A DNA stretch of 64,000 nt from Acutalibacteraceae bacterium (lineage in GTDB: Bacteria; Bacillota; Clostridia; Oscillospirales; Acutalibacteraceae): the NCBI GenBank assembly GCA_045638965.1, contig JAZUCC010000003.1, positions 65,558 through 129,557 on the forward strand, written 5' to 3'. A program made the translations under genes and the position numbers. The notes below the pieces were generated by a model that saw only the letters and a list, made by a program, of their open reading frames with translations, had not been told where the DNA came from and did no database searches. This document shows, piece after piece, positions 5,081 through 60,215 of this stretch. Position 1 is the stretch's first letter. Each line of letters begins with the position of its first letter.

Positions 5081-5098
5081 GATTAAAATCTCCTTATT

Positions 5099-6757: not shown

Positions 6758-6789
6758 TTTATCTTTTCTCTTCCTACTTTTTTTGTATA

Positions 6790-7110: not shown

Positions 7111-7145
7111 AGGAAAAACCTCCGATATGTTAATTTATTGATAAA

Positions 7146-7154
7146 ATTATATCA
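7146..7154 (-). promoter_or_regulatory. Extended -10 element (TGATATAAT on the minus strand) ahead of the 106-aa gene
   Basis: The reverse complement of 7146-7154 reads TGaTATAAT. It sits in the 110-bp gap after ligase paralog 2. Confidence 0.45.
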
Positions 7155-7220
7155 CTCTGTAAGATGAAGAATGTGAACAAATTGTTAAAAATGCCACTGA
7201 GTTGCGGAATAAATAACAAA

Positions 7221-8903
7221 TTATTTTTCAGCAAGCTTCTGTAATGCCATAAAGTCAACCTTTTCAAGGGGAGTATGGGGAAGCTCGTCCATAAATTCAA
7301 TAACTCTGGGAACAGAGAACTTGGAAAGATTCTTTTCGCAGGTTTCTGTGATAATCTTCTTGTATTCCTCCTCGTCGCCCTTTTCCTTGAGAGAAACATA
7401 GAGCTTTACAAGGGGCTTGCCGTCAATTGTGCCTCTTACTGCACAGGATTCCTTGATGAAGGGAAGTGTATCCATAAGATTTTCAACGTCAACGGGATAT
7501 ACGTTGTAGCCTGAGATAATGATAAGTCTCTTCTTTCTGCCTGCAAAGAAGAAGAAGCCGTCGTCATCCATGTAGCCGAGGTCGCCTGAACGCACCCACT
7601 TTACGCCGTTTTCATCGGTGTAAAGACCTGCATCCTCGGGACCGTCCTTTGTAAGGTAGCCTGCCATGATTGTGGGACCTGAAATTACGATTTCACCTAC
7701 AGTGCCGTTGGGAACCTTCTTGCAGTCATCATCCCAGATTTCCATTGTAACGCCTGCAAGGGGGATACCGATTGAATTGTCCTTGTTTGTAGTGTTTGTG
7801 TTTGCACAGCAAACGGAGCCTACCTCTGTAAGACCGTAGCCCTGACGAAGACGTGCCTTTGTGCCGTTCTTGTCAAGCATTTCGTTGAATTCCTGTAAGA
7901 ATGCGGGAGAAAGGTCGTCACCGCCTGCGAACATAAGACGGGTGTGCTTAAGGTGGGGACCGTCGAAGCCTTCTGTGTGGTAAAGCTTCTTGAACATTGC
8001 GGGAATACCGACGATACCTGAAATTCTGTTATTCTTGTAAAGCTTTACAACAAGCTTCTTGTCAAACTGAAGAAGGGGGATGATTCTTGCGGCATTACAC
8101 ATTGTCATGTGCATTGCAACAACAAGACCGAATGCATGGAAGAAGGGGAGAATAATGATTTCGCCTTCATCGCCGGGATCAATAATGTGGTCAATGTAGC
8201 CTAATGCATAAACATTTTCGTTGATAGCCTTGCTTGTAAGCTTGATGGTCTTGCTCTTGCCTGTTGTACCGCCGCCGTTTAAGTAAACTGCAATGTCGGA
8301 GCCGTTGTTCTTTATGCCCTCAACCTTCTTGCCTGCATATTTCTTTATAACATCCTTATAAAGAGTGGGCTCACGGTATTTGAGAATCTTTTCAAGAAGA
8401 GCCTCACCTGCACCTGCAGCAGCCTTCTTTGCGGGAGAAGCATAGTCGGAGCAGCGGCACAGAAGAATGGGAAGGCCTGTCTTGTTTACAGCCTCAACGT
8501 TGTGCTGCTTAAGACCGATAAGTCCGAGAACCATAATACCCTTTGAGTCTGATTCCTCAATTGTTTCAAAGAGAACCTCATCGGGAAGAAGGGGATGCAC
8601 AAAGTTTACGATAACGCCGATTTTGTTAAGTGCATAGAATGCTGCAATGCTTTCAACGTTTGTGGGAGTAAAGATTGTGTAAGCGTCGCCTCTTTTAAGA
8701 CCTACGTCATGTGTGAAATAGTATGCGAGTGCATCAATATCTCTTAAAAGATCGCTTCTCTTGCCTCTTTCGTCCATGTGCTGATAAGCATCATAGTCGC
8801 CGTACTTCTCGGTTGCGTTGACGAAGAATTCATAACAGTTGAGCTCTTCGGCTTTAATCATCATATTCTGTGCATTGTCTTCACGGAATTTGTTTTCAGT
8901 CAT
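7221..8903 (-). CDS. AMP-dependent synthetase/ligase (acyl-CoA synthetase family), paralog 2
   Basis: Same motifs as 5099-6757 (YLNGGGTTGKSKTIKLT, GYGLTEVGSVCC, GRKKRLIIISGYNVYP). Collinear over the full length, with roughly three quarters of positions identical by eye. Confidence 0.85.
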   Translation of the reverse strand: MTENKFREDNAQNMMIKAEELNCYEFFVNATEKYGDYDAYQHMDERGKRSDLLRDIDALAYYFTHDVGLKRGDAYTIFTPTNVESIAAFYALNKIGVIVNFVHPLLPDEVLFETIEESDSKGIMVLGLIGLKQHNVEAVNKTGLPILLCRCSDYASPAKKAAAGAGEALLEKILKYREPTLYKDVIKKYAGKKVEGIKNNGSDIAVYLNGGGTTGKSKTIKLTSKAINENVYALGYIDHIIDPGDEGEIIILPFFHAFGLVVAMHMTMCNAARIIPLLQFDKKLVVKLYKNNRISGIVGIPAMFKKLYHTEGFDGPHLKHTRLMFAGGDDLSPAFLQEFNEMLDKNGTKARLRQGYGLTEVGSVCCANTNTTNKDNSIGIPLAGVTMEIWDDDCKKVPNGTVGEIVISGPTIMAGYLTKDGPEDAGLYTDENGVKWVRSGDLGYMDDDGFFFFAGRKKRLIIISGYNVYPVDVENLMDTLPFIKESCAVRGTIDGKPLVKLYVSLKEKGDEEEYKKIITETCEKNLSKFSVPRVIEFMDELPHTPLEKVDFMALQKLAEK

Positions 8904-40341: not shown

Positions 40342-41850
40342 TTATTGATTTACTGTTATATAAAGATTCTGCAGACCTACTGCGGCACGAAGAATAAGTC
40401 TTGCATCGGCAGAGGTGATTTTATTGTCCCTGTCGGCATCTGCGGCAAAAAATGTCATTCCCGCGAGAGAAACAAGACCTACTGCGGCACGAAGCGCAGT
40501 TCTTGCATCACTCGCGTCGGGCTTGCCGCTGCCGTCAATGTCGCCCTTGCTGAAATAGGGTGAAATATTTATTGTGAATACCTCGGAGAATTCCTTGTGG
40601 ATAACTGTAATGTGCTGTGTGCCCTTTACTGCGGGATTCGGGGTGCTCATTCTGAAATCGGTGACATATTCGGATGTGCCGTCGGTATAAGCAAGCTTGA
40701 CCTTTATTCCCGAAAGGTCAATCACCTCACCGTAAAGGAAATTCAGGCGGAGGTCAGCGGGGTAAACAAGCACAATTTTTTCGGGGGATGCAATAGAATA
40801 TCGGAATTCTATTGTCACATAAAGTCCGCCGAAATATACCCTGACCTTGTTTCCCGGACCAATTATGAAGTCGGAGGGGGTGCACACCGCTTCGCAATTC
40901 TGATGATATACCTCTTCCTTTTCGCCGTTGTCGTAAACTGCTTCAAGCACAAGTCCGTCAATGGCGGGGATGTCGGTATTGTTGTAAACGGTGAGATTAT
41001 CGGGCTGCTTTTTCACTGAAATTGAAACAAGCCTTCTCGGAGTTACATTCACAGTGAAATCCGCATAAATGTCGGAATATTTATATGCTATCCTGAATGT
41101 GTGCTGACCCTTTGAAAGAGCAGTGCCGTGAGCCTCGTCATGGCATGAGGTGATTGTGAAATCGGCATCATTTTTTATCTGCTCATAGGTATATGATTTT
41201 TTTGTTGAATCCCTGAAGCTTAAGGTAACCGTAAGCCCCGATAAATCAAGAGCCTGATTTTCCATGTATGCCGCGGCGGGCATTTTTGTTATTGAGATGC
41301 TCTGCACGGGAAGCCTTGTTACCGTTACTGAAAATACGGCTGAATATGTGTTTACATTGTCGGGTGTATAGGTGATTTTGATTTCCTTTGTACCGGGTAC
41401 CTTCATTTCGGGTGCATAAACATTATAGCCCGTAAGTGTCGCTTCCCTGCCGTTTTTATCTGTGCTTACAACTGAAAGCCCCGTAAGGTCAAGCTCCTCG
41501 GTGCCGTCAACATAAGAAAGCTTTTTCGGAAGTGTCTTTATTTTTATTCCCGTGATATTCTTGTTTTCTGCAGGAGTGGAAACCACCTCAAGGGCACCCA
41601 TCTGCACCCAGCCTGTAATGCCGTCCTTTGCAAGATAGATTTTTCCGAAGGTGTCATTTCTTATTTCGGTTACATCAATAAATGTATCCTTTGTTATTTC
41701 AGCAAGCTTTTTTCCTGTAATACTGGGAGACGCATATACGCCTGTCACATCCTTTGTGACAATATATTTTCCCGTTTTCAGCGCAAGGCATAAGGGGGAA
41801 AAGGAAAGAAGCATTGCTGCAATCAGAAGAATGGAAAGAAATTTTTTCAT
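40342..41850 (-). CDS. Secreted SH3b + four Big_3-like Ig repeats + C-terminal dockerin protein
   Basis: Signal peptide and an SH3b-like domain (GVYASPSITGKKLAEI...GWVQMGALE). Repeated ...P.K..Y..G..LDLSGL.V... units. Dockerin duplicates DIDGSGKPDASDARTALRAAVGL / DADRDNKITSADARLILRAAVGL. Confidence 0.75.
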   Translation of the reverse strand: MKKFLSILLIAAMLLSFSPLCLALKTGKYIVTKDVTGVYASPSITGKKLAEITKDTFIDVTEIRNDTFGKIYLAKDGITGWVQMGALEVVSTPAENKNITGIKIKTLPKKLSYVDGTEELDLTGLSVVSTDKNGREATLTGYNVYAPEMKVPGTKEIKITYTPDNVNTYSAVFSVTVTRLPVQSISITKMPAAAYMENQALDLSGLTVTLSFRDSTKKSYTYEQIKNDADFTITSCHDEAHGTALSKGQHTFRIAYKYSDIYADFTVNVTPRRLVSISVKKQPDNLTVYNNTDIPAIDGLVLEAVYDNGEKEEVYHQNCEAVCTPSDFIIGPGNKVRVYFGGLYVTIEFRYSIASPEKIVLVYPADLRLNFLYGEVIDLSGIKVKLAYTDGTSEYVTDFRMSTPNPAVKGTQHITVIHKEFSEVFTINISPYFSKGDIDGSGKPDASDARTALRAAVGLVSLAGMTFFAADADRDNKITSADARLILRAAVGLQNLYITVNQ

Positions 41851-41871
41851 TTTCACCAATCCGTTAATTTT

Positions 41872-43092
41872 TTAGGGAAGAAGACCGTTTTCAAGAAGTA
41901 TGTCGTAAAGATTATCAAGCCCTACTGCAATGCGCAGGGTTGTTCTTGCGTTGTCCGAGGAAATTTTACCGTTGTTGAAGAAATCCACACGGCGCAGTCT
42001 TTCATAGTCAGGCTCTTCAATGCCTACAGCCGCACGAAGCACATAGCGGGCATCCGCGGCAGTTGTAGCTCCGTCGCCGTCGGGGTCGCCAAGCTTCTTA
42101 TCGGCTATATATTGCATACGCTCACGGTATTTTTCCTGTGCGGTTTCCTCGTCGGAAATCCACCTTGCATAGAAAAGCTTCACGCCTGTTTCCCAAGGGG
42201 CTATAGCAGTGATTTTTTCACCTGAAAAATCGGGAGTGGCATACCATCCGCCGAAGCTGTAGCCCACAACGGGAGACTTTATTGAAAGAAGCCTTGTTCC
42301 GGTGCCTACCTCATATTCGATGGGATTTTTTGTGTTGTCCGCTCTGCCGAAGGGGTAGGAGATATCGGTTGTAAGCACATAGTTTATCTCATAAACCATA
42401 GGAATGAAATGAGCCTTGAGAAGCATTTCCTTTGTTCCCGCGGGGACAGCGCTTATTCTTATATCGTTTTCAGCTGACCAGCCGTCAAAGGTATAGCCTT
42501 TTACAGACGGAGTGAAAAGGGGGAGACTGTTCTGTAAAGGCCCGGCAAATATGAGTCTTGCATCCGTGGGGATAACAGAGCCGTCGGCAGATATGTAAGC
42601 GGTAACAGTGTCGGAGGGCGCATATATATATACCTTTTGGGTACCCTCGGTGTAGCTGTTTTCCGAAGCAAGGCATATTCTCATGAACACGCGGGATGAA
42701 TTGCTTTTTTGTGCAAAAGCCGTAATTTCGTCACGGGTGATTGTGAATGAGCCTTCAGCAAGCTCCCTGATGCAGCTCCAGTTGAAGGAATCGCCGCTCA
42801 TTTCAAGAAAGAGCTTTGTTTTACAGGCAAGATAATACTCTGGAGAGGCAAGAAGTGCCTGCTGAGACTTATAGCTTTCAAGTGCCAGCTCATATACCAT
42901 TTCCCGCAGCTGCTCTGCATCGGCAAGGGAATGGGAAAATTCAACAAGGAAGGCGGACATGTCACTGTCAGCGGTAAGTGACAGTATTTCGGGCGGGGGA
43001 GTAAGCTTGTTCTGCGACTGGACCGCGTATGCGGGCATGATAAATGAAAATACAAGCACAAGACACAGCAACAAGGATAAAAGCCTTTTCAT
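41872..43092 (-). CDS. Secreted Listeria-Bacteroides repeat (Flg_new) protein with a C-terminal dockerin
   Basis: ATG at 43092 after GGAGGTG, and signal peptide MKRLLSLLLCLVLVFSFIMPAYA. Has GYTFDGWS and GYSFGGWY repeats. Dockerin DPDGDGATTAADARYVLRAAVGI / NNGKISSDNARTTLRIAVGL. Confidence 0.7.
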   Translation of the reverse strand: MKRLLSLLLCLVLVFSFIMPAYAVQSQNKLTPPPEILSLTADSDMSAFLVEFSHSLADAEQLREMVYELALESYKSQQALLASPEYYLACKTKLFLEMSGDSFNWSCIRELAEGSFTITRDEITAFAQKSNSSRVFMRICLASENSYTEGTQKVYIYAPSDTVTAYISADGSVIPTDARLIFAGPLQNSLPLFTPSVKGYTFDGWSAENDIRISAVPAGTKEMLLKAHFIPMVYEINYVLTTDISYPFGRADNTKNPIEYEVGTGTRLLSIKSPVVGYSFGGWYATPDFSGEKITAIAPWETGVKLFYARWISDEETAQEKYRERMQYIADKKLGDPDGDGATTAADARYVLRAAVGIEEPDYERLRRVDFFNNGKISSDNARTTLRIAVGLDNLYDILLENGLLP

Positions 43093-43257
43093 TTGTTCAC
43101 CTCCGCAATATACTAATGTAATTATATATATAAAAGCCATTTTCGTCAACAAAAAATATTTTCCTTGCTATCCACTTAATACCACGGCTTTTATGTTGAC
43201 AAAAAAACACTTTTATTGTATTTTGGAAATAAGAAAACTGCTGAAAGGAAAAGTAAT

Positions 43258-45331: not shown

Positions 45332-45358
45332 CGGTGCAGGTTTTCCTGCACCGTTTTT
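45332..45358 (+). terminator. Rho-independent terminator
   Basis: CGGTGCAGG-tttt-CCTGCACCG followed by T5. Confidence 0.8.
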
Positions 45359-45909
45359 CATTTTGTCTTAAAATTGAAATCTACGTTTGTGAAAAAGCAA
45401 TCTTTTTCCCATGTTACAGGATTACCGTCTATGTAATTCCATATGTTATCAAAATCTTTATCGTTTCGCACAACATGATCATAGTAAGAACGTTGAAAAA
45501 GCTTTTTGCCGCATTCTTTGTTTATGAGTCTTTTCAGGGATGATACATATTTGGGGATTATGGCATTTGGACCGATAGATTGATTATTGTTATTGTTTAC
45601 ATATATCAACAAGTGTATATGGTTGGGCATGATAACGTAATGTTCAACTTCAATATCGGGATTTTGCGTATTTGTTGAGGTTATATATTTTTGGGCAATT
45701 TCCCCGATTTCACTGAGGCTAATTTCTGCTGCGACAGGAACTGCTTTATTGGCAGATAATGTAGTATCTGTAATGACTTTCTTTGATATTTTGCCGAAGA
45801 TGCACTCTTTATCTTTAGTACACAATGTTAAAAAGTATGAGCTTTGCCAATTGTAATTATAACCTTTTAATCTTGTTGGTTTTCTGACGGGCTTTTCGGA
45901 ACTGTCCAT
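45358..45909 (-). CDS. IS200/IS605-type Y1 (HUH) transposase-like protein, REP-associated tyrosine transposase (RayT)-like
   Basis: HUH motif MPNHIHLLIY and the downstream FQRSYYDHVVRN (catalytic Tyr region). Local AT-rich composition. An inverted REP-like pair lies immediately upstream. Confidence 0.75.
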   Translation of the reverse strand: MDSSEKPVRKPTRLKGYNYNWQSSYFLTLCTKDKECIFGKISKKVITDTTLSANKAVPVAAEISLSEIGEIAQKYITSTNTQNPDIEVEHYVIMPNHIHLLIYVNNNNNQSIGPNAIIPKYVSSLKRLINKECGKKLFQRSYYDHVVRNDKDFDNIWNYIDGNPVTWEKDCFFTNVDFNFKTK

Positions 45910-45992
45910 TATTCATCACCTTTATTTTAATTGTAAGCTATTTTCGCTGATTATACAACCTGAAATTTCCGTTTATTGTAAATATACCGTCT

Positions 45993-46020
45993 GTAGGGGA
46001 CGGCATCCCTGACGTCCCGC
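45993..46020. repeat. REP-like imperfect palindrome, copy 1
   Basis: GTAGGGGACGGCATCCCTGACGTCCCGC, with an internal GGGACG...CGTCCC stem. Confidence 0.7.
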
Positions 46021-46109
46021 CGCAGATAATAAGAAAACAGATGTTTCGTTCCGTTGATGCACGTAATATGTTCCACGGAAACAATGATGAGATTTTTTAA
46101 TTTACCGAT

Positions 46110-46137
46110 GCGGGACGTATAGGAATCCGTCCCCTAC
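46110..46137. repeat. REP-like imperfect palindrome, copy 2 (inverted relative to copy 1)
   Basis: GCGGGACGTATAGGAATCCGTCCCCTAC. The reverse complement of copy 1 is GCGGGACGTCAGGGATGCCGTCCCCTAC. Confidence 0.7.
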
Positions 46138-46447
46138 AAACTGAAGGGTGATTTTGTGTGTTTTTGAACATAATTAATTCTGTTTATATATTTCATACAA
46201 AAATATCATGAATATTTTGGCGGGGGTTTTGGGGTGTAGGGCTTGAAAATACTGGTACATAATGTTATATTAAAATCGTATATGTGTTTATATATATTAT
46301 ATCGGGGGAGGTCAGCCTGATTTATGTATAAAATTGACATATTTACAAGGGAAAATAAAAAATTTGCCGTGAAAACGGTGGCGGAGAACACTCCGCAGCT
46401 GTGTGAGCCGCGGCTCATGCAAATATCATAAAGGAGATGATTTTTTA

Positions 46448-49400
46448 ATGCATAAAACTAATTTCAAAAAGGTTTTATCAGTTTTCCTTTCATTTTTAAT
46501 GATTCTTTCATGTTGGGTGTGGGTTGCACCTGATACACATACACATGCTGAGGCTGCAGGATATGCAGTTGAATATTACTATTCCTCCGGTACAACCTTC
46601 CTTACTGATCTGGCAGTTTCTGCAAGACAGTATCAATTCTTGGCTGGTGGTAGAGCGGACGCAGCAAAAGGTTATTTGACTAATGCCGGGTACACTGTTT
46701 TGAATCAGGACCTTAATGCCGGTAAAAATAGCTACTTTACTTTTATGGGTTACAAAATGGGTACTGATGAGAGTAAGGCTATAAGAGCTTTCGGCCTTTA
46801 TAATAGCCCCGGTGATGCACCTTCTTCACTTTCGTATACAATCGACGGCCGTGCTTGTACATTTTATCCTGTAACTACATCTTTTGTGGATAGTGGTACG
46901 AGTACGGGAAATGTTCTTGACCTTAATAAAGGTTGCGGTGGTGGAACAGATACTATTTATCTTTACTATTCTACAGACCCCAATGCCGGACAGCTTATTA
47001 CAAAGATCGACTGGCAAGATGGTACCACAAATGACCAGGCCGATGTTCAGACCCCTGTTGTTTGGTTAAATACAAACGGTGACCGTAAAGCAGGTGATAT
47101 AGCTGACTTTAACAGAGGTGTTTCCGGAAGTGACGATATTTTCTTCTTCTATAATCGTATCGGAACACAGGTAACAACAACAGAGCTTAGAACTGCCGTA
47201 GACGCAGCTAAAGTTAAACTTGATAACAAGTCAAACTATACGGATGCAACTATAGAAACTTTGCAGAAGGCATACAATACAGGTAAAGCAATTGTTGATG
47301 ACTATAACTCATATGGTCTTTCCGGTGCGTATGATCAGAATGCAATTGATAGCGCAAAGAATGCTATTAATAATGCTATCAATGCTCTCAGAACAACTGC
47401 AACACTTAATTTTAACTATACAGGAAGCTCTCCTGATGTTCCGATTGAGTATGAGGTCGGTGCAGCAACAACATATACTTATGCTGTTCATGATTTTGTA
47501 GGTGAACGCGCAGGCTATACATTCACGGGTTGGTCTACATCTTCATCCGCAACAAGCGGTTCAAAATCAACTGTAACAGCAGGTCTTAAGCCCACATTCT
47601 ATGCGATTTGGCAAGCAAACAAATATAATGTGTTGTTTGACAACCTTATTGATTACAATGAATGGAAGTCAATGATTACATCAGACAAGGCAAACGCAAT
47701 TTCACTTGTTGAGGGCGGTTTTGCTATTACAAATACAAAAGACGAAGGTGAATTTACATTTGCATCTCCCTTCTTCCCTGTAGACCCCGGAAAACAGTAT
47801 AAAATTGACATCAATTTTGAAGGTGTAGCTTGGGATGTTTATATCTTCTTCTGCGATGCAAACGGTACTTGGATTGATTTTGCGGACGGTCCCACAAACA
47901 GATTTTCAGCCGGAGCAACAACGGGTATTCCTGCAGATAATGCTGTATTTACAGCGCCCGATAAGTCAGAGGTTGTGAAGGCACAGATTCGTCTTGATTC
48001 AAATAACCCCGGCGGAAAGGTTACCTTTAGTAACATTCGTGTTTACGAAGTTAATTCAGTAGAGAACGGAGTTTCCTATACTGATCCTGTTACTGTAACT
48101 TATGATTCGACCTACGGTACTCTTCCCTCTCCCACAAGAGATGGTTATGAGTTCCTTGGCTGGTATGATGCAAACGGCACAAAGGTTAATTCATCTGATA
48201 CCGTAAAAATTACAGCTGATACAACTTTATATTCCAGATGGAAACAGCTTGGTTATACAATCACATGGGTTGACGGTAATGGTGCTACATTAAAGACTGA
48301 GCTTGTAAATAAAGGTGTAACTCCCTCTTATTCAGGTTCAACACCCACAAAGCAGGTTGATGCTACAAATCATTATATATTTAATGGAAAGTGGTCTCCT
48401 GCAGTTGTGGCTGCATCAGCAAATGCAACATATACTGCACAGTTTGATGCAGTTGCTCATACTTTCACATGGACAACAATAACTCCCGCAACCTGTATTG
48501 CAGCAGGTGCAAAGAAGGGTGTTTGCTCCTACTGTGGTTATGAAACAACAGCCGAAATCCCTGCAACAAATACACACAGCTATACAGTATTTGTAGAAAC
48601 TGTTGCTCCCTCATGTACTGCAGGCGGTTACGACACATATAAGTGCGCAACCTGTGATGCAAAGCAGAAGAGAAATGAAACATCTGCTACACCTCACACT
48701 GCAGCTACAAGAGAAGAAAACCGTGTTGAAGCAACATGTGCTGTTCCCGGTTCATATGTACTTGTAACATATTGCTCCAAGTGTAATAATGAACTCAACA
48801 GAGAAAACAAGATAATTCCCGCTACAAACGCACATAGCTATACTGTATTTGTAAATAAGGTTGAATCCACATGTACAACAGACGGTTATGATGTATATAA
48901 GTGTGCAACCTGTAATGCAACACAGAATCAGAACATAGTTGCCGCTCATCACACGCTTACAACCGTAGCTGCAAAGCCCGCTACCTGCGGTGAAGACGGC
49001 TGGAATGCTTATGAGTACTGTACAGAGTGTACTCACACCACAAAGGTAACTATCCCTGCAACAGGCGCTCATGTTTATGAGTACGCACAGAATGCAGACA
49101 AGAAGACACATACAGGTACATGTACAGGCTGCGGTGCTACAACAAGCGGCATCTGCGCAGGCGACAATGCAACATGTACAGACGATGCTATCTGTAATAC
49201 ATGTAACAGTGTATATCAGGGAAAGCTCGGCCACAGCTTCACAGATTATAAGTCAAACGGCGACGCAACATGTACTGCAGACGGCACAAAGACCGCAAAG
49301 TGCGACCGTTGCGATGCAAAAGAAACAGTTACAGATAAGGGCTCTGCAAAGGGTCACACATGGCAGGATGCAGATTGCACAACACCCAAGACATGTTCAG

Positions 49401-52400
49401 TCTGTGGTGCAACAGAGGGTGAAGAGCTCGGTCACAGCTTCACAGATTATAAGTCAAACGGCGATGCAACATGTACTGCCGACGGTACAAAGACCGCAAA
49501 GTGCGACCGTTGTACTGTGACATCAACAGTTACTGATACAGGCTCTGCAAAGGGTCACACACCCGCTGCAGCGGTTGAAGAAAATATTGTTAAGGCTTCC
49601 TGTACAGCAGCAGGCTCATACGATTCAGTAGTTTATTGCTCAATTTCAACATGTAAGGCTGAAATCAGCAGAACTGAACAGACTATTGCAAAGCGTGAGC
49701 ACGTATACGGCGACGAATGGGAAGTTGTAACTCCTCCCACACATACAACAGAGGGTCTTGAAAAGAAGACATGTACCCGTGAGGCAGACAAGTACTATGA
49801 GGCTTGCTCACACGAAATCACACAGGTTATTCCTGTTGTGACAGACACAACAGCTCCCGAAGTAACACTTACTATTGATGAAAGCACATGGAACAAGTTC
49901 CTTACTGCTATCTCATTCGGTACTTATGTAAGCAAGGAGCTTCAGCTTGAAATTGAAGCCTCCGACGCAGAAACAGACATCAAGTCAATTGAATATTACA
50001 TTTCCGCAACAGCTCTCACAGAAGAAGAGGTAAAGGCTGTTACCGAATGGACTGCATACGAAGGTAAGGTTGCTATCTCAAGAGCAGATGCTGCAAAGAT
50101 GGTAGTTTATGTAAAGGCTGTAAACGGACAGAATGTTGCAGCTTATGTAAGCTCCGACGGTTATACATTTGACCTTTCCAAGCCTGTAATTACAGTTGAA
50201 AAGAACTGTACAACAGCAATAATCACAGTAACAGAAACAAACCTTGACACTGTTAAGGTTGATGATGCAGCTGTTACACTTACAGACGGCGCATATACAA
50301 TTGAGGGTGCCGGCACTTATGTTGTAGTGGCTGCTGACAAGGCAGGCAACACAACAACCGAAACAATCACAATCAACGGACATCAGGAAAAGATTCTTGA
50401 TGCTAAAGAGGAAACCTGTACAACAACAGGTCTTACAGAAGGAAAGATCTGCTCCGTTTGTAACACAGTTCTTCTTAAGCAGAATACAATTGATGCAACA
50501 GGTCACAGCTTCGTAAACGAGGTTGAGGCAAATGATGCAACATGTACTGCTGACGGAAACAAGGCTTACAAGCAGTGCGAAAACTGTAATAAGTTCTTCG
50601 CTGCAGCAGAAGGCGAATATTCCGAAAATGCAAAGGATAGTGCAGATGCATTTGTAATCGCTTCTCCCGGTCACGATTTCGCTGATGAATTCACAGTTGA
50701 TCTCAAGGCAACATGTGACACAGCGGGCTCAAAGTCAAGACATTGTTCTGCATGTGATGAAGTAACAGACACTACAGAAATTCCCGTAAGAGCTCATACA
50801 ATTGTTGACACAACAGTAGCAACTGCTGCAACATGTACTGTTGACGGTGTAATGAATCAGAAGTGCTCAAATGAAGCAACTGATGAATATGAGGCTTGCG
50901 CATACACAACAACAAGAGTAATTCCTGCAACAGGTCACACAGAAATCACACTTGACGCAGTTGATAGCACCTGTACCGAAACAGGTCTTACAGAAGGTAA
51001 GAAGTGTACAGTCTGCGGTACTGTAACAGTCAAGCAGGAAGTAACTGAAAAACTCGGTCACAATCATGTTGCAACAGTTACAGATCCCACATGTAATGAC
51101 AGAGGTTTCACAACTCACGTATGTTCAAGATGTAACGATACATATGTTGACACATATGTAGATGCACTCGGACATAACTACAGCACAGAAAACGCAACAG
51201 ACAACAACAACGGTACTCATACATTAGCATGTACAAGATGTGCTGAAGGCACAACAGGTCATTTCGAGATTGTTGCATGTGAATATAAGGATGTTGAAAC
51301 TGCTCCCTCCTGTACAGCACAGGGCTACACAACACATATCTGTACTGTATGCGGATATTCATATGCAGATACATATGTAAGCGCAACAGGACATACATGG
51401 GGCAAGTGGACTGTGGCAGGCAACGGTACTCATACAAGAGAATGTACTGTTTGTCAGAATGAAGCAGGCAGAACAGAAACTGCTGCTTGTACCTACGGTG
51501 ACTGGACACAGACAGTAGCTCCCAAGTGTGAAGAAGACGGTGAAAAGGCTCACACCTGTACAGTATGTAACGATACTGTAACAGCTGTTGTTCCCCAGAC
51601 TGGTCACGCATGGGATGACGGTGTAATCACTGAAGCATCAAGCTGTACAGTAGCGGGTACAATAACCTACACATGTCAGAATGATAATTCTCACACATAC
51701 ACAGAGGATGCTCCTTTAGCTCCCCATGATTGGATGGGTGCTGACTGTAACAATCCCTCAACATGTAGAGCCTGCGGCGCTGCATCCGGCTCTGCAATCG
51801 GTCATACCTTCACAAACTTTGTCGAAACTGTTGACTATACATGTACTGAACAGGGCTACACCGTTTATGATTGTATCCGTTGTGAAGAAACAGAAAAGAG
51901 AGACTTCGTTGATCCGGCTCACAGATTTGCAGAAGCCTTCACTATTGATGATGCCGCAACCTGTGACAAGGACGGTCTTAAATCAAGACACTGTACAGAA
52001 TGTACTGCTGTTATTGATGAAACAGTTATCAAGGCAAGAGGTCACAAGCTTGTTGATACAACAGTAGCAATTGCTGCAACATGTAAAGAAACAGGTATCA
52101 TGAATCAGGCTTGCTCAAATACAGCTACTGATGAATATGAGGCTTGTGCATACACAACAACAAGAGTTATTGATATTGATCCCGAGGCTCACAATTGGGA
52201 AGATAATTACACAGTAGATACAAAGGCTACATGTGAAGCAAACGGCACAAAGACAATCCATTGTGAATATTGCGATACCAAGAAGCCCGCTTCTGCAGTT
52301 GTTATCAACAAGAGAGACCATGTCTATGCAGAAAACGGTGTAGCAATTCCTGCTACATGTACAGCAGACGGTGTTATGAACCTTATCTGTACAAATGATG

Positions 52401-55400
52401 AAACTGAAGAATATGCACAGTGCAGACATGAATCCACTACTGCTATTTCCGCAACAGGTCACATCTTCGGCACAGTAACAGCTGCAACTGAAGCTACATG
52501 TACCACTGCAGGTAACAGTGCATACAAGCAGTGCGCAAACTGCTCCAAGTTCTTCGCTGCAGATGCAGACAACAAGTCAACAGCTGCAAAGGACAGCGCA
52601 GAAGCATTCACAATCAAGGCTCTTGACCACGATTTCGCAGAAAGCTTCACTGTTGACAAGAAGGCTACCTGTGAAGAAAACGGCTCAAAGTCAAGACATT
52701 GCTCACGTTGTTCAGCGGTTACCGAGGTAACTGTTATCAGCAAGAGAGCACATAACTACGTTGATACATCAGTTGCACAGGATGCAACATGTACTGCAGA
52801 GGGTGTTATGAACACTATCTGTACAAATGTTGAGACAGATACACATGAAGCTTGCTCAGACGTATCCACAAGAGTAATTGAAATCAAGCCCGATGCTCAC
52901 TCCTTCACAGCTTACATTTCCGATAACAACGCAACCTGCTACAGCAACTGCACAGAAACAGCAACCTGTGACAACGGCTGCGGCAATACAGATACAAAGG
53001 AAATTGCAGATTCCAAGGCAGCACATAACTACACCGGCTATGTAGCAAATGGCGATGCAACATGTCAGAAGAACGGAACTGAAACCGGCACATGTTCATT
53101 TGGTTGCGGTGCAAAAGACACAAGAGTAATTGAAAACTCCACAGTAGGTCATAAGTTCACAAGCTACACAGGAAAAGGCGATGCAACCTGTCAGAAGAAC
53201 GAAACAGAGACAGCATCCTGTGATTACGGCTGCGGACAGACTAATTCAAGAGAAATTGCAAACTCCACAGTACCTCACAACTATGTTGACTACACAGAAA
53301 ACAATGATGCAACATGTCAGAGGAATGAAACCGAAACAGCTTCCTGCTCATTCGGCTGCGGACAGACTCATACAAGAGAGATTGCAGACTCCACAGTACC
53401 TCACAACTATGTTGACTACACAGAAAACAATGATGCAACATGTCAGAGAAATGAAACCGAAACTGCATCCTGTGAATACGGTTGCGGCACAACTGACACA
53501 AGAGACATTGCAAACTCCAAGGTAGAGCATAAGTTTGAAAGCTACACAGCAAACGGTGAAGCAACATGTAAGGACAATGATACAGAAACAGCATCCTGTG
53601 CTTACGGTTGCGGACAGACTCATACAAGAGAAATCGCAGATTCCACAGTAGGTCATAAGTTCACAAGCTACACAGGAAACGGCGATGCAACATGTAGCAA
53701 GAACGAAACAGAGACAGCATTCTGTGATTACGGCTGCGGACAGACTAATTCAAGAGAAATTGCAGACTCCACAGTACCTCACAATTATGTTGACTACATA
53801 GAAAACAACGATGCAACATGTCAGAGAAACGAAACCGAAACAGCTTCCTGCTCATTCGGCTGCGGTGAGACTCATACAAGAGAAATTGCAGATTCCAAGG
53901 TAGCTCACAACTATGTAAACTATGTAGCTAACAACGATGCAACCTGTCAGAAGAACAGAACTGAAACCGGCACATGTTCATACGGCTGCGGTGCAACTGA
54001 CACAAGAGATATTGCAGACTCCAAGGTAGAGCATAAGTTTGAAAGCTACACAGCAAACGGTGAAGCAACATGTCAGGACAATGATACAGAAACAGCATCC
54101 TGTGCTTACGGTTGCGGTCAGACTCATACAAGAGAAATCGCAGATTCCACAGTAGATCATAAGTATGAGACTTATGTATCAAACAACAATGCAACCTGTA
54201 AGGATAATGCAACCGAAACAGCATCCTGTGAATATGGTTGCGGTGCAACTGACACAAGAGTAATTGCAAACTCCACAGTACCTCACAACTATGTTGACTA
54301 CACAGAAAACAATGATGCAACATGTCAGAGAAATGAAACCGAAACAGCTTCCTGCGCATTCGGCTGCGGACAGACTCATACAAGAGAAATTGCAAACTCC
54401 AAGGTAGGCCATAATTTTGAAACCTACACAGGAAACGGCGATGCAACCTGTCAGAGAAACGAAACCGAAACAGCTGCTTGTGCATACGGCTGCGGTGCAA
54501 CTGACACAAGAGAAATTGCAGACTCCAAGGCAGATCACACAAGAGTTGAAATTCCTGCAGTTGCTGCAACATGTCAGGCAACAGGTCTTACAGCAGGTGT
54601 CAAGTGTTCAGTATGCAGCACTATCCTTGTTGAACAGACAGTAACAGCAAAGACTGATCATGCAGAGGTTATTGATGCAGCTGTAGCTCCCGGATGTGAA
54701 ACAACAGGTCTCACAGAAGGTAAGCATTGCTCATTCTGCGGTACTGTAATTAAGGCACAGACAACAGTAAACGCTACAGGTCATGACTTTGATATGTCAA
54801 AGGCTACTCTTACAAGACCCACACAGAAGGCAAACGGCACATGGACAGACGGTTATTACTCATACACATGTAAGAACGACAAGTCCCATACAAAGCAGGA
54901 AACTGTAAAGAGAGCTGATTATGCAGCTTACGATGCAATTATTGAATCTGTGAATACTCTTCTTAAGGAAGACCTTCCCGAAGAGGATATTATAAAGCTC
55001 CAGAAGCTTCTCAATAACACAATTGCACAGAATCTTATTGCAGATGAACAGGCTAATGTTGATGCAGAGGTTGAAAAGATCAACGATGTTATCACTGCTG
55101 TATATCCTGATGCAGGTCTTTCACTTGTAATCAGAGGCGCAGATACATTCTATGCAGGTACAGTAATTGACCTTTCAGTATTCAAGGTAAATGAAAATAT
55201 CAGCATTGAAGCAACCAATGTTAACTGGACCTGCTCCGAAGAAAATACAGTATTCTTTGCAAACGGCAGACTTCTTGCCGTAAGCACAGGTACAGTAACT
55301 CTTACCGCTAAATCAGGTCTTCTTACCGCTACAAAGACAATCAACATTGTTGAAGGCGGCAATGTAAGAATTATCAGATTCAATGCTATGAATCAGATGC

Positions 55401-55729
55401 ACTACATTATTGAAGACAGCTTTGCAGTATATAATTCAGGTAACCTTTACTGGTCAAACGACCACGATATCCGCTTCAGAGTTTATACAAACAGCTCCTT
55501 CACATTTGAAACTCACATGGTTTATCTGAATGGTGTTGCTGTTGAGCCTGATGCACAGGGTTACTACACAATCCCCGCAGGTGTCGGTGATGTAAGAGTC
55601 AATGTTGCAGGCGCAGTTTATGACGAAGATGATGAAGGCAACAGAACCAAGTTCAATTTCTGGGAGTGGCTCGTTGCACTCTTCAGAAGGATTATCAACT
55701 TCTTCAAGAGCATTTTCGGCATAGCATAA
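46448..55729 (+). CDS. Giant secreted/cell-surface protein (3093 aa). In order: signal peptide, threefold beta-prism-like N-domain, FIVAR-like helices, Flg_new repeats, jelly-roll CBM-like domain, ~45 Cys-triad modules (including 13 tandem 42-aa repeats) interrupted by an Ig-like block, FIVAR-like segment, Big_2-like domain, amphipathic C-terminal tail
   Basis: AAAGGAG RBS before the ATG at 46448, and signal peptide MHKTNFKKVLSVFLSFLMILSCWVWVAPDTHTHAEA. An uninterrupted 9.3 kb frame. Has GYTFTGWS and GYEFLGWYDANG repeats. Recurrent ATC-x2-G-x5-7-C-x2-C modules. The terminator at 55751-55785 follows. Confidence 0.85.
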   Translation: MHKTNFKKVLSVFLSFLMILSCWVWVAPDTHTHAEAAGYAVEYYYSSGTTFLTDLAVSARQYQFLAGGRADAAKGYLTNAGYTVLNQDLNAGKNSYFTFMGYKMGTDESKAIRAFGLYNSPGDAPSSLSYTIDGRACTFYPVTTSFVDSGTSTGNVLDLNKGCGGGTDTIYLYYSTDPNAGQLITKIDWQDGTTNDQADVQTPVVWLNTNGDRKAGDIADFNRGVSGSDDIFFFYNRIGTQVTTTELRTAVDAAKVKLDNKSNYTDATIETLQKAYNTGKAIVDDYNSYGLSGAYDQNAIDSAKNAINNAINALRTTATLNFNYTGSSPDVPIEYEVGAATTYTYAVHDFVGERAGYTFTGWSTSSSATSGSKSTVTAGLKPTFYAIWQANKYNVLFDNLIDYNEWKSMITSDKANAISLVEGGFAITNTKDEGEFTFASPFFPVDPGKQYKIDINFEGVAWDVYIFFCDANGTWIDFADGPTNRFSAGATTGIPADNAVFTAPDKSEVVKAQIRLDSNNPGGKVTFSNIRVYEVNSVENGVSYTDPVTVTYDSTYGTLPSPTRDGYEFLGWYDANGTKVNSSDTVKITADTTLYSRWKQLGYTITWVDGNGATLKTELVNKGVTPSYSGSTPTKQVDATNHYIFNGKWSPAVVAASANATYTAQFDAVAHTFTWTTITPATCIAAGAKKGVCSYCGYETTAEIPATNTHSYTVFVETVAPSCTAGGYDTYKCATCDAKQKRNETSATPHTAATREENRVEATCAVPGSYVLVTYCSKCNNELNRENKIIPATNAHSYTVFVNKVESTCTTDGYDVYKCATCNATQNQNIVAAHHTLTTVAAKPATCGEDGWNAYEYCTECTHTTKVTIPATGAHVYEYAQNADKKTHTGTCTGCGATTSGICAGDNATCTDDAICNTCNSVYQGKLGHSFTDYKSNGDATCTADGTKTAKCDRCDAKETVTDKGSAKGHTWQDADCTTPKTCSVCGATEGEELGHSFTDYKSNGDATCTADGTKTAKCDRCTVTSTVTDTGSAKGHTPAAAVEENIVKASCTAAGSYDSVVYCSISTCKAEISRTEQTIAKREHVYGDEWEVVTPPTHTTEGLEKKTCTREADKYYEACSHEITQVIPVVTDTTAPEVTLTIDESTWNKFLTAISFGTYVSKELQLEIEASDAETDIKSIEYYISATALTEEEVKAVTEWTAYEGKVAISRADAAKMVVYVKAVNGQNVAAYVSSDGYTFDLSKPVITVEKNCTTAIITVTETNLDTVKVDDAAVTLTDGAYTIEGAGTYVVVAADKAGNTTTETITINGHQEKILDAKEETCTTTGLTEGKICSVCNTVLLKQNTIDATGHSFVNEVEANDATCTADGNKAYKQCENCNKFFAAAEGEYSENAKDSADAFVIASPGHDFADEFTVDLKATCDTAGSKSRHCSACDEVTDTTEIPVRAHTIVDTTVATAATCTVDGVMNQKCSNEATDEYEACAYTTTRVIPATGHTEITLDAVDSTCTETGLTEGKKCTVCGTVTVKQEVTEKLGHNHVATVTDPTCNDRGFTTHVCSRCNDTYVDTYVDALGHNYSTENATDNNNGTHTLACTRCAEGTTGHFEIVACEYKDVETAPSCTAQGYTTHICTVCGYSYADTYVSATGHTWGKWTVAGNGTHTRECTVCQNEAGRTETAACTYGDWTQTVAPKCEEDGEKAHTCTVCNDTVTAVVPQTGHAWDDGVITEASSCTVAGTITYTCQNDNSHTYTEDAPLAPHDWMGADCNNPSTCRACGAASGSAIGHTFTNFVETVDYTCTEQGYTVYDCIRCEETEKRDFVDPAHRFAEAFTIDDAATCDKDGLKSRHCTECTAVIDETVIKARGHKLVDTTVAIAATCKETGIMNQACSNTATDEYEACAYTTTRVIDIDPEAHNWEDNYTVDTKATCEANGTKTIHCEYCDTKKPASAVVINKRDHVYAENGVAIPATCTADGVMNLICTNDETEEYAQCRHESTTAISATGHIFGTVTAATEATCTTAGNSAYKQCANCSKFFAADADNKSTAAKDSAEAFTIKALDHDFAESFTVDKKATCEENGSKSRHCSRCSAVTEVTVISKRAHNYVDTSVAQDATCTAEGVMNTICTNVETDTHEACSDVSTRVIEIKPDAHSFTAYISDNNATCYSNCTETATCDNGCGNTDTKEIADSKAAHNYTGYVANGDATCQKNGTETGTCSFGCGAKDTRVIENSTVGHKFTSYTGKGDATCQKNETETASCDYGCGQTNSREIANSTVPHNYVDYTENNDATCQRNETETASCSFGCGQTHTREIADSTVPHNYVDYTENNDATCQRNETETASCEYGCGTTDTRDIANSKVEHKFESYTANGEATCKDNDTETASCAYGCGQTHTREIADSTVGHKFTSYTGNGDATCSKNETETAFCDYGCGQTNSREIADSTVPHNYVDYIENNDATCQRNETETASCSFGCGETHTREIADSKVAHNYVNYVANNDATCQKNRTETGTCSYGCGATDTRDIADSKVEHKFESYTANGEATCQDNDTETASCAYGCGQTHTREIADSTVDHKYETYVSNNNATCKDNATETASCEYGCGATDTRVIANSTVPHNYVDYTENNDATCQRNETETASCAFGCGQTHTREIANSKVGHNFETYTGNGDATCQRNETETAACAYGCGATDTREIADSKADHTRVEIPAVAATCQATGLTAGVKCSVCSTILVEQTVTAKTDHAEVIDAAVAPGCETTGLTEGKHCSFCGTVIKAQTTVNATGHDFDMSKATLTRPTQKANGTWTDGYYSYTCKNDKSHTKQETVKRADYAAYDAIIESVNTLLKEDLPEEDIIKLQKLLNNTIAQNLIADEQANVDAEVEKINDVITAVYPDAGLSLVIRGADTFYAGTVIDLSVFKVNENISIEATNVNWTCSEENTVFFANGRLLAVSTGTVTLTAKSGLLTATKTINIVEGGNVRIIRFNAMNQMHYIIEDSFAVYNSGNLYWSNDHDIRFRVYTNSSFTFETHMVYLNGVAVEPDAQGYYTIPAGVGDVRVNVAGAVYDEDDEGNRTKFNFWEWLVALFRRIINFFKSIFGIA
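52895..54532 (+). repeat. 13 tandem in-frame 126-bp (42-aa) repeats inside the giant gene
   Basis: The unit resembles PHNYVDYTENNDATCQRNETETASCSFGCGQTHTREIADSTV. Copies start every 126 nt from 52895. Several copies share long identical nucleotide runs (for example around 53262, 53388 and 54270). Confidence 0.9.
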
Positions 55730-55750: not shown

Positions 55751-55785
55751 TGCGGAGTGTCCGAAAGGGCACTCCGCAGTTTTTT
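55751..55785 (+). terminator. Rho-independent terminator of the giant gene
   Basis: GCGGAGTG-tccgaaaggg-CACTCCGC followed by T7. Confidence 0.8.
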
Positions 55786-55911
55786 TGGTCACTTGCAGGT
55801 CCGCAGCCGCGGGACGGGATTTTTATACTATGATTTCAGTCATGATTTTCTTGACATATATTGTTATTGATATTAAAATGTACTATATATAACTATATGT
55901 GGAGAATTGCC

Positions 55912-60138: not shown

Positions 60139-60215
60139 CCGCTCGTGGCGCAGCTGGATAACGCAGCAGATTCCGATTCTGAAGATCGGGGGTTCGAATC
60201 CCTTCGAGCGGGCCA
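60139..60215 (+). tRNA. tRNA-Arg (anticodon CCG), CCA encoded
   Basis: Manual cloverleaf fold. Acceptor CCGCTCG/CGAGCGG. D-arm GCGC-AGCTGGATAA-CGC. Anticodon arm (G)CAGA-TTCCGAT-TCTG(A). T-arm GGGGG-TTCGAAT-CCCTT. Discriminator G plus CCA. A few non-canonical pairs (13:22, 27:43, two G-U). Confidence 0.75.

Follow-up and report, generated by a model that had tools for sequence, protein, structure and literature searches.

What is the Cys- and His-rich body of a 3093-residue surface protein made of, and what does it do for the cell? The question is raised by an open reading frame in a 64,000-nucleotide stretch of DNA (hereafter, the window) from an Acutalibacteraceae bacterium, a member of the Clostridia from the gut or rumen.

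The gene encoding the 3093-residue protein

The gene is defined by the following features.

46243..46363, + strand: two sigma-70-like promoter candidates, 46243-46271 (with a TG extension) and 46334-46363, by consensus match only
46431..46437, + strand: Shine-Dalgarno sequence AAGGAGA, read from the sequence, ~11 nt 5' of the start codon
46448..55729 (including the stop codon), + strand: coding sequence of the surface protein, 3093 aa, start ATG at 46448
46448..46552, + strand: Sec-type signal peptide (MHKTNFKK, hydrophobic core, THA/EA), read from the sequence
55751..55788, + strand: intrinsic terminator, a 12-bp stem (8 GC pairs) with a T-run downstream

The number of promoter candidates upstream of the reading frame is not above the shuffle expectation. 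The product is 100% identical to an NCBI protein (P0121). Neighboring genes carry dockerins, and an IS200-like transposase is located just 5' of the gene.

Several features point to an intact gene: the Shine-Dalgarno sequence and the terminator are in place, the repeats have diverged, and the GC content resembles that of the flanks. A long and repetitive gene from an uncultured organism, with a transposase just upstream, could be misassembled, chimeric, or no longer functional, but this is extremely improbable. The frame is open over 9.3 kb without interruption, is preceded by a Shine-Dalgarno sequence, begins with a signal peptide, and is followed by a strong terminator; the GC content runs on unchanged into the flanks; and the architecture of head, modules, and tail is common to the homologues. 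In addition, the repeats are only 61-89% identical in DNA, so that assembly collapse or mis-joining is unlikely.

The signal peptide, already recognized in the preliminary description, does not contain a twin arginine, and a homologue (L002) has a similar N-terminus. Therefore, the protein would be exported unfolded, and only a simple ion could be loaded outside the cell.

The module array

The region between the N- and C-terminal parts of the protein is divided as follows.

48455..49837, + strand: module block 1, M1-M12, aa 670-1130
49838..50377, + strand: ~180-aa block between module blocks 1 and 2
50378..52894, + strand: module block 2, M13-M32, aa 1311-2149
52895..54532, + strand: C-x9-C-x3-C variant array, 13 modules, M33-M45
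54533..54922, + strand: M46, M47, and the degenerate last module M48 (H2779, C2808, H2814)

The tandem Cys/His modules first described at 48458-54907 (aa 671-2820) are real: 142 of the 147 Cys residues of the protein fall within aa 683-2808, and Cys content is 6.5% in this middle region versus 0.6% and 0.4% in the flanks. Mapping by hand from the Cys positions, followed by alignment, gives 47 complete four-ligand modules and one degenerate module, slightly more than the roughly 45 estimated by eye; HMMER likewise counts 48 stretches. The modules range from 26 to 56 aa, and the 48 align to the consensus xHxxxxxxxxxxATCxxxGxxxxxCxxCx12, in which His2, Cys25, and Cys28 are conserved at 90% or more and the first Cys at 70% or more.

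Block 1 contains several variants (M6, His2Cys2; M7, short Cys4; M9, short, 26 aa; M12, His-Cys2-His). Block 2 contains the duplicated three-module supermodules (M14-16, M26-27, M28-29, and M30-32). In agreement with the duplication noticed earlier, M14-16 aligns with M30-32 over 141 aa at 59% identity (E 2e-49), and a DNA repeat family is found at 50658, 51906, and 52614. The second variant, C-x9-C-x3-C, also stands and accounts for M33-M45, the last twelve of which have an exact period of 42 aa (126 nt; TRF period 126 nt, 11.7 copies). M48 carries the motif GYYxxxCKxDxSH, which is kept in homologues.

The 126-nt copies are 67-78% identical in DNA, and the closest repeat pair in the gene is 89% identical. 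The repeats of periscope proteins, in contrast, are near-identical in DNA, permitting length variation; a strict, length-variable periscope protein is thus rejected.

The middle region is rich in Thr (16.4%) and poor in Leu (1.5%), Met (0.3%), Trp (0.6%), and Phe (1.9%), a composition that would suit coreless single-layer sheets. The structure prediction proposed for consecutive modules was carried out on three C-x9-C-x3-C modules: the AF2 model is all-beta, with ~3 strands per module and a mean pLDDT of 77.8, and is of moderate confidence (pTM 0.38; pLDDT > 70 in just one of five models). Foldseek comparison of this model with the PDB returns nothing at E <= 1e-3.

Candidate metal ligands

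The candidate ligand sets of the 47 complete modules are His-Cys3 in 39, Cys4 in three, His2Cys2 in three, and His-Cys2-His in two; the pattern of three Cys and one His proposed earlier thus applies to 39 of the 48 modules and gives way to other sets elsewhere. Among the 142 Cys residues of aa 683-2808, 141 are within modules and 140 are at predicted ligand positions, the remaining two being C2168 (an extra residue of M33) and C1254 (interrupting block).

Ligands are exchanged at fixed spacing. Three modules are without the first Cys, and each of them has a His exactly four residues before the CxxC (H888, H1591, and H1662), a feature of none of the 45 others; the same H-x3-C-x2-C variant is present in a homologue (P0012). 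The leading His is replaced by Cys with the spacing kept (C903-x6-C910 versus H970-x6-C977; C1681-x12-C1694 versus H929-x12-C942), and M12, M23, and M48 have a His where the other modules have the last Cys. The first module after each interruption starts with His (H671 and H1312), and the final module ahead of the interrupting block has no trailing GH and retains four ligands. No CxxCH is present among the 27 CxxC motifs, which excludes a multihaem c-type cytochrome.

Given that Cys and His are swapped without a change of spacing, that the number of Cys is odd, that core hydrophobics are few, and that homologous modules are modelled with tetrahedral Cys/His sites, the best reading of these patterns, as the preliminary description suggested, is one predicted four-ligand structural metal site per module rather than intramodule disulfides. 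Covalently cross-linked repeats without metal, disulfide-stabilized in the manner of EGF or midkine or otherwise, might be expected of an extracellular protein rich in Cys, and the weak Foldseek matches of the three-module model include the disulfide-rich midkine and pleiotrophin (E 1.4-1.5). Such repeats are nevertheless very unlikely here: 39 modules contain three Cys, an odd number, a conserved His belongs to the pattern, and interchange of His and Cys at fixed positions would be pointless for disulfides. Furthermore, the homologous IgA protease showed no disulfides despite 24 Cys residues (PMC12237041), and the relatives bearing organism names are all from gut anaerobes. Membership of the EGF-like repeats is also rejected, as the modules mostly have three Cys, with Cys/His interchange, and not an even invariant set.

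Relationship to the IgA protease of Thomasclavelia ramosa

When a single-module profile is searched against PDB sequences, the only significant match is 9qa6_A (E 1.2e-8, three stretches), and a tri-module profile again matches 9qa6_A only (E 0.014). The modules thus have a described homologue, the domains termed ZBD1/ZBD2, CTD2/CTD4, or beta3/4/6 of the T. ramosa M64 IgA protease (UniProt Q9AES2; PMC12237041, PMC12415215, PMC12402451). They entered the literature in 2025 as periscope domains with putative zinc binding, so the module is not the undescribed one that had been suggested; the check for a described repeat family of known structure turned up a family, and the module resembles no solved fold. 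In a BLASTP comparison of a ZBD1 fragment with the array (E 7e-13), the best match is M14-M15.

The modules of the protease are known from AlphaFold models and SAXS alone. AlphaFold3 models show tetrahedral Cys/His sites, and the module stretches form an extended rod by SAXS, for which they were termed "metal-associated periscope domains" (PMC12415215). Subdomain I has a distant resemblance to the TFIIS zinc ribbon (PMC12237041).

The two proteins are alike in several respects. Both have subdomains of ~30-55 aa, predicted to be small beta-sheets, with four candidate Cys/His ligands (47 of the 48 modules in the present protein); these subdomains lack a hydrophobic core and resemble no solved structure. 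Both share a long-insert subtype (ATCTTAGNSAYYTCDGCDKWFADA in the protease, ATCTADGNKAYKQCENCNKFFAAA in the 3093-aa protein), both have an Ig-like domain (a putative one in the 3093-aa protein) set between two module blocks, and in both the modules are extracellular, in a Firmicute surface protein, between a head and an anchor, which in the 3093-aa protein are candidates. The differences are mainly of scale and subtype. The protease has 3 + 2 modules with mainly His2Cys2 sites, whereas the 3093-aa protein has 47 with mainly His-Cys3 sites; for the first ZBD1 subdomain our ligand rule gives His-Cys3, whereas the PLoS Pathogens paper assigns His2Cys2 to all three ZBD1 sites. Subtypes present in the giant protein beyond those of the protease are the short 26-aa modules, C-x9-C-x10-C, and the 13-module C-x9-C-x3-C array; the giant protein has neither a protease domain nor a sortase motif and ends in an amphipathic tail. 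By homology, it adds an extreme example to a stalk-module family that was noticed recently and is poorly characterized.

Distribution of the module

In line with the earlier failure to assign the module to a named domain family, Pfam, NCBIfam, and PDB fold searches give no match to it. No zinc-finger or zinc-ribbon family of Pfam or NCBIfam scores above cut-off on the 3093-aa protein, on which Flg_new/TIGR02543 is the only family to do so. Homologues give sub-threshold matches to C1_1, zf-BED, and Zn_ribbon_NUD; such families pass in homologues only as summed short knuckle matches, with no single stretch significant.

The module is not unique to this locus. The distribution survey finds it in tens of thousands of proteins (56,451 representative proteins). 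Its arrays reach 90 modules and in most cases separate a head domain from a dockerin, SLH, or transmembrane anchor. The modules are located between cohesin and dockerin in P0073, after a GH53 domain in P0083, before SLH in P0036, and before a transmembrane anchor in P0012; P0133 and P0137 are giant module arrays with a dockerin at the end. Since the same modules occur in such different contexts, a generic spacer is suggested.

There is a small chance that the module represents perhaps the largest unrecognized extracellular metal-binding family of anaerobic Firmicutes and that the giant-array stalk is an environmental switch or metal reservoir. If so, the reduced, zinc-loaded stalk would be a stiff fibre of ~0.15 um, and oxidation or zinc starvation by the host would lead to collapse, cross-linking, or metal release.

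Regions flanking and interrupting the array

46553..47182, + strand: N-terminal domain, aa 36-245
47180..47623, + strand: weak FIVAR-like helical segment (aa 245-314), then the first Listeria-Bacteroides repeat (Flg_new, aa ~330-392)
47624..48454, + strand: beta domain (aa 393-532), Flg_new (aa 533-595), and Flg_new-like repeat (aa 597-668)
54923..55651, + strand: C-terminal cassette, a helical segment then two beta domains, conserved
55652..55726, + strand: aromatic/basic amphipathic C-terminal tail FNFWEWLVALFRRIINFFKSIFGIA, conserved in five homologues

The domain of aa 36-245 has no Pfam match, PDB match, or detected homologue. The region 47624..48454 is a candidate binding head, 51% identical to L002 over 271 aa (E 2e-80); within it, the conserved domain of aa 393-532, for which Pfam gives no match, looks like a carbohydrate-binding module (CBM). 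The C-terminal cassette matches no Pfam family and is 48-60% identical to five homologues. The tail FNFWEWLVALFRRIINFFKSIFGIA, an analogue of which is carried by L002, is a candidate envelope anchor or sorting signal and is not a recognized anchor type.

The block between module blocks 1 and 2, described earlier as an Ig-like break at 49838-50380, gives weak matches to Big_13 and Glucodextran_B, under the curated cut-offs, and a single-sequence AF2 model with a mean pLDDT of 47.5. The last ~65 aa model as all-beta, with top Foldseek matches that are all Ig/PKD/Big (E >= 0.035), and look like an Ig/PKD-like beta sandwich. The break thus holds, and the Ig-like character is weakly supported, for these ~65 aa rather than for the ~115 aa before them.

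A proposed extracellular stalk

The protein is arranged as head, modules, and conserved C-terminal tail, where homologues have dockerin, SLH, or transmembrane anchors. We consider it probable that the head-to-tail chain of metal-stapled modules is a long, thin, semi-rigid stalk, and a long metal-stabilized stalk is the most likely role for the array. Each module would be a small antiparallel beta-sheet, almost without a hydrophobic core, held by a single structural metal ion in tetrahedral coordination; the ion is most likely Zn2+, picked up in anoxic surroundings once the Sec pathway has exported the protein. The putative ligands are the His (or Cys) that opens the module, one Cys at the foot of a beta-hairpin, and the residues of a CxxC-type knuckle. 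This opening ligand comes immediately after the final strand of the module before it, so that the metal would also stiffen each joint; with modules held and joints stiffened the chain would therefore form the stalk. Scaled from the IgA-protease model (~110 A per three modules), the stalk would be ~150-175 nm long when fully extended. It would hold the N-terminal head (the aa 36-245 domain, the Listeria-Bacteroides repeats, and the CBM-like beta domain) far from the cell, with the C-terminal cassette and the amphipathic tail staying at the envelope, an orientation that is assumed. The analysis itself establishes the anatomy of the modules, their ligand pattern with its swaps, the homology to the IgA-protease domains, the all-beta prediction, the absence of a solved fold, and the size of the family with its placement between head and anchor domains in other proteins; the identity and occupancy of the metal, the rigidity and length of the stalk, its anchored end, and the ligand of the head are inferred. 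Two IgA-protease papers report, by SAXS, that ZBD1, the barrel domain, and ZBD2 are joined by flexible hinges, and given these a chain of 47 modules might deviate widely from a straight rod.

SasG and Aap of staphylococci, with their G5-E stalks, and periscope proteins also present an N-terminal functional domain on an elongated, coreless, single-layer beta-sheet stalk, and Aap shares the link to zinc. However, the folds of SasG and Aap are unrelated to that of the module, and zinc bridges two Aap molecules via His/Asp/Glu and water, whereas the module sites are predicted intramolecular Cys/His staples. The zinc-dependent behavior of these stalks is a precedent for another reading, in which the metal sites are real and the array itself is functional, either as an extracellular buffer or scavenger of zinc (or Fe/Ni/Co) or as an element gated by zinc or redox state, which might alter its stiffness, length, or self-association in response to the environment. 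The 47 predicted sites in each molecule and the oxidation sensitivity of Cys-rich sites favor such a function, which we regard as rather unlikely. Fully coordinated Cys/His sites typically hold structural, non-exchanging zinc, the same modules occur in enzymes, scaffoldins, and SLH proteins, and no zinc-uptake or regulator genes are identified among the neighboring genes scanned.

Repeats bind ligands in many fibrillar adhesins, and distinct module subtypes are retained in fixed order as supermodules, as might be expected if the modules were not a stalk but the ligand-binding repeats of an adhesin that attaches multivalently to host glycans, plant polymers, or other cells. This is less probable still. 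Beyond the ligands and one Gly, little of the module surface is conserved; identity to L002 is ~36% for the modules versus 51% for the CBM-like head; and in the IgA protease the module domains are dispensable for substrate recognition and catalysis.

As staples of a stalk, the predicted sites recall zinc ribbons and knuckles (the TFIIS C-terminal domain, rubredoxin-like), with which they share a CxxC knuckle on a beta-hairpin and further Cys/His ligands. A zinc ribbon is not among the Foldseek matches of the three-module model, and the modules are extracellular, tandem, and structural rather than intracellular binders of nucleic acid or protein. A spacer role is shared with the linkers and X-modules of cellulosomal scaffoldins, and the modules are often found between cohesin and dockerin. 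In contrast to the Pro/Thr-rich linkers and the Ig-like X-modules, the module is a folded Cys/His domain; the dockerins in the neighboring genes are a further point in common with cellulosomal systems.

Anatomy of the module array

The modules occupy aa 671–2820 of the 3093-aa giant protein. Cysteine makes up 6.5% of this middle region versus 0.6% and 0.4% of the flanks, and 142 of the 147 Cys residues fall within aa 683–2808. Modules were mapped by hand with the Cys positions as anchors, the ligands were counted by hand, and the result was checked with MAFFT. This yields 48 modules (M1–M48), 12 before an interruption at aa 1131–1310 and 36 after it; HMMER independently counts 48 stretches. 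The MAFFT alignment of the 48 modules gives the consensus xHxxxxxxxxxxATCxxxGxxxxxCxxCx12, in which at least 90% of the modules keep the His and both final Cys and at least 70% keep the first Cys.

The preliminary description had reported a variant with the spacing C-x9-C-x3-C as well as duplicated supermodules, and both are present. The variant forms a block of 13 modules (M33–M45), the final twelve of which keep an exact 42-aa period (TRF, 126 nt, 11.7 copies); the 126-nt copies are 67–78% identical to each other at the DNA level. M14–M16 and M30–M32 share 59% identity across 141 aa (E 2e-49), and a three-copy DNA repeat family lies at 50658, 51906, and 52614. The twelve near-regular repeats, together with the other subtypes, offer clean material for solving a structure, determining the metal stoichiometry, and measuring single-molecule mechanics.

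It is extremely improbable that the giant ORF is an artefact or a dead gene. Every DNA repeat pair is at most 89% identical, so that assembly collapse or chimerism is unlikely, and an assembly artefact was rejected because the repeats are too diverged.

One putative metal per module

Read module by module, 47 of the 48 modules carry four candidate metal ligands, M48 being degenerate.

Candidate ligand sets of the modules
39 modules: His-Cys3
3 modules (M7, M20, M22): Cys4
3 modules (M6, M19, M21): His2Cys2
2 modules (M12, M23): His-Cys2-His

Among the Cys residues of the array region, 141/142 are inside modules and 140/142 occupy predicted ligand sites; of the other two, C1254 lies in the interrupting block and C2168 is a surplus Cys within M33.

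The first Cys is absent in three modules. In all three, a His precedes the CxxC by exactly four residues, a position at which none of the remaining 45 modules has one. P0012, an unrelated homologue, also has this H-x3-C-x2-C variant. In modules that lack the leading His, a Cys is positioned at equal spacing (C903-x6-C910 versus H970-x6-C977; C1681-x12-C1694 versus H929-x12-C942), and where the last Cys is absent, a His follows (C1120-x-H1122, C1743-x5-H1749). A metal site accepts Cys and His interchangeably; a disulfide does not. Because the swaps are compensated, and because the two residues are interchangeable only as metal ligands, a metal is favoured over a disulfide. If the modules were disulfide-stabilised repeats, the odd number of Cys per module would be unexplained and the swaps would make no sense; this alternative is very improbable, and EGF-like disulfide repeats in particular were rejected as a reading of the modules.

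The array region has hardly any hydrophobic residues from which to build a core (Leu 1.5%, Met 0.3%, Trp 0.6%; Thr is 16.4%), and the modules contain no CxxCH motif. The ligand swaps, the odd Cys count, the lack of CxxCH, and the composition are all consistent with a single tetrahedral structural metal in each module, as predicted from sequence. A multihaem cytochrome was rejected for want of CxxCH. An Fe-S cluster protein was rejected as well, since the N-terminus reads as a Sec-type signal peptide without twin arginine and the spacing is unlike that of CDGSH.

The first module after each interruption opens with a His (H671, H1312), and the module immediately preceding the interrupting block lacks a trailing His yet carries four ligands. 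Therefore, the leading His probably belongs to the module that follows it.

Relationship to an IgA protease

Searches of the giant protein against Pfam and NCBIfam return two Listeria-Bacteroides repeats and a weak FIVAR segment, all in the N-terminal part, and zero matches within the modules. The apparent matches of homologues to the C1_1, zf-BED, Zn_ribbon_NUD, and RING families add up many short knuckle hits, each of which is insignificant by itself. Single-sequence searches of the PDB with the module blocks, the interrupting block, and the N-terminal 634 aa were empty. The 48-module profile, in contrast to single sequences, has one significant match among PDB sequences, a chain named "IgA protease" (9qa6_A, E 1.2e-8), which the module matches three times over its full length; a tri-module profile finds the same chain as its sole match (E 0.014). 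By BLASTP, residues 854–975 of 9qa6_A match the array with E 7e-13, the top alignment, with M14–M15, being ATCTTAGNSAYYTCDGCDKWFADA versus ATCTADGNKAYKQCENCNKFFAAA.

This protein, the M64 IgA protease of Thomasclavelia ramosa, is treated in three 2025 papers (PMC12237041, PMC12415215, PMC12402451). Its isolated CTD2, which corresponds to the putative zinc-binding module ZBD1, is an extended rod by SAXS, and the C-terminal domains have been proposed to hold the protease out at a distance from the cell (PMC12415215). The same domains appear in PMC12402451 as β-sheet domains only, with no significant effect on catalytic efficiency. Since these papers cover the homologous domains of 9qa6_A, the module is already described. 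The preliminary description picked out a feature that is real and striking, and it read the putative metal chemistry and the likely role correctly, but its claim of an undescribed module does not hold. Searches of the literature on cellulosome, zinc, periscope, and zinc-ribbon themes found the module described only in the IgA-protease papers. The family is known but barely characterised, with no experimental structure, no Pfam or NCBIfam model, and a metal that is only putative.

The likeness extends to the architecture. In the IgA protease, an Ig-like barrel separates the two module blocks, and the giant protein is also interrupted by a partly Ig-like block. This block (49838–50377), previously described as Ig-like, was modelled by single-sequence AF2 at low confidence: the last ~65 aa model as a β sandwich whose top fold matches, though not significant, are all Ig, PKD, or Big domains, but the first ~115 aa give no fold assignment.

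His2Cys2 is given for all three ZBD1 sites in PMC12237041. The ligand rule from the giant protein predicts His-Cys3 (H, C, C-x2-C) for the first ZBD1 subdomain (9qa6_A residues 854–882), and the published assignment may deserve a second look.

Predicted structure and proposed mechanism

Three consecutive 42-aa modules (aa 2234–2362) were modelled by AF2 from an alignment of 20 in-register three-module stretches, all from the giant protein. The model is all-β with about three strands in each small module (mean pLDDT 77.8), but pTM is only 0.38. Foldseek finds no match to it in the PDB at E ≤ 1e-3, the best (0.26) being chains of Ig domains. The model, itself of moderate confidence, agrees with the published picture of the IgA-protease modules.

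After Sec export, each module would take up one metal ion and fold around it. The ion is most likely Zn2+, and Fe2+, Co2+, or Ni2+ are also possible in the anoxic gut. It would link the incoming strand to the CxxC knuckle and the base of the hairpin, substituting for a hydrophobic core and stiffening the joint to the preceding module. At ~3.7 nm per unit, by analogy with ZBD1, 47 units would make a filament of ~150–175 nm bearing an N-terminal head; its length, rigidity, metal identity, and orientation are inferred.

Other Gram-positive stalks rely on isopeptide, disulfide, or hydrophobic-core strategies. If the modules are indeed stapled by metal, anoxic-gut bacteria build their surface fibres and cellulosome-like scaffolds from an extracellular module that resembles a zinc finger, a solution distinct from all three.

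A very large module family

A word-indexed search with aa 671–1125 retrieves 3401 proteins. The few that are named come from Clostridia or Firmicutes MAGs, and cohesin, dockerin, SLH, BspA-type LRR, or glycoside hydrolase domains are often added. An exhaustive search of 1.84 billion representatives with the module profile retrieves 56,451 proteins at E ≤ 1e-3; the number is 31,955 at E ≤ 1e-10 and 9,198 at E ≤ 1e-30. Arrays of 40–90 modules are found in proteins that reach 7,583 aa in length. Judged by these matches, the giant protein is one among very many module-bearing proteins.

Architectures of module-bearing homologues
P0073: cohesin, modules, dockerin
P0083: GH53, modules
P0036: modules, SLH
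P0012: modules, TM anchor
P0133 and P0137: giant arrays, dockerin at end

A spacer role is suggested chiefly by the recurrent position of the modules between a functional domain and an anchor. That the array is an active zinc- or redox-responsive or metal-buffering element is unlikely, and that the modules are ligand-binding repeats is quite improbable.

P0012 has ~14 consecutive minimal 26-aa modules (GHxWxxAxCTAPKTCSVCxATEGxALGH) followed by the transmembrane anchor and is a convenient minimal system for structural work.

A GTDB genome scan with the giant protein finds nine distant loci. The species-representative genomes of the relatives are MAGs of Acutalibacteraceae, Lachnospiraceae, Eubacteriales, and unclassified Clostridia; where the record gives an origin, it is deer cecum or colon. 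The giant protein is a good entry point to this family, and a domain model built from its modules could provide annotation for tens of thousands of gut and rumen metagenome proteins now labelled "hypothetical".

Candidate head and tail

The N-terminal domain (aa 36–245; 46553–47182) has no homologues in a word-indexed search of 5.8 billion proteins, in Pfam, or in the PDB sequence set.

A 2335-aa homologue at a distant locus (L002, ORF 733–7740) is 51% identical over aa 393–663 (E 2e-80), whereas its modules are only ~36% identical to those of the giant protein, indicating that this region is more constrained than the modules. Aa 393–668 (47624–48454) comprise a β domain (FAITNTKDEGEFTFASPFFPVDPGKQYKIDINFEG...IRLDSNNPGGKVTFSNIRVYE) flanked by Flg_new repeats and are far better kept than the modules or the N-terminal domain. 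The region is likely a binding head. Its β domain has no match in Pfam, looks CBM-like, and may represent a new CBM-like family.

The C-terminal 268 aa are kept at 48–60% in five homologues, including the last 25 residues, FNFWEWLVALFRRIINFFKSIFGIA. This aromatic/basic amphipathic tail (aa 3069–3093; 55652–55726) is nearly invariant in the five (K[FW][NS]FWEWL...FRKI..FFK.LFGI), and the L002 homologue ends in an analogous aromatic/basic helix, WFIKFIYSIVRFFWKLFRV. The giant protein has no LPXTG motif, SLH domain, or dockerin, and the tail may serve as an envelope anchor or a sorting signal of a kind not yet recognised.

The giant gene and its surroundings

In the mechanical ORF list, a single plus-strand ORF (46403..55729) encloses the giant-protein region. 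The likely start is ATG 46448, with AAGGAG ~11 nt before it.

Features of the giant gene and downstream
5′ of the giant gene, +: two promoter-like sites, preceding ATG 46448
55751–55788, +: strong terminator (hairpin and T-run), 3′ of the giant gene
60139–60215, +: tRNA-Arg(CCG)

A cluster look-up finds an identical NCBI protein (P0121). The GC content of the gene runs on evenly from the flanks, and the other genes of the window are those of an ordinary chromosome (RecG, EPSP synthase, rhamnosidase, GH2, aldehyde dehydrogenase, and two dockerin-bearing secreted proteins). The latter two (40342–41859 and 41872–43152, both on the minus strand) between them contain Big_3 repeats and Flg_new, and both end in dockerin-like duplicated calcium-binding segments. 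Therefore, the organism appears to use cohesin–dockerin assembly; no cohesin was identified among the scanned ORFs of the window.

Directly upstream of the giant gene is an IS200-like Y1 transposase gene (45358–45909, minus strand). The intergenic region between the two (~45990–46140) contains hairpin-like GGGACG...CGTCCC repeats, which could be the ends of the IS200-like element.
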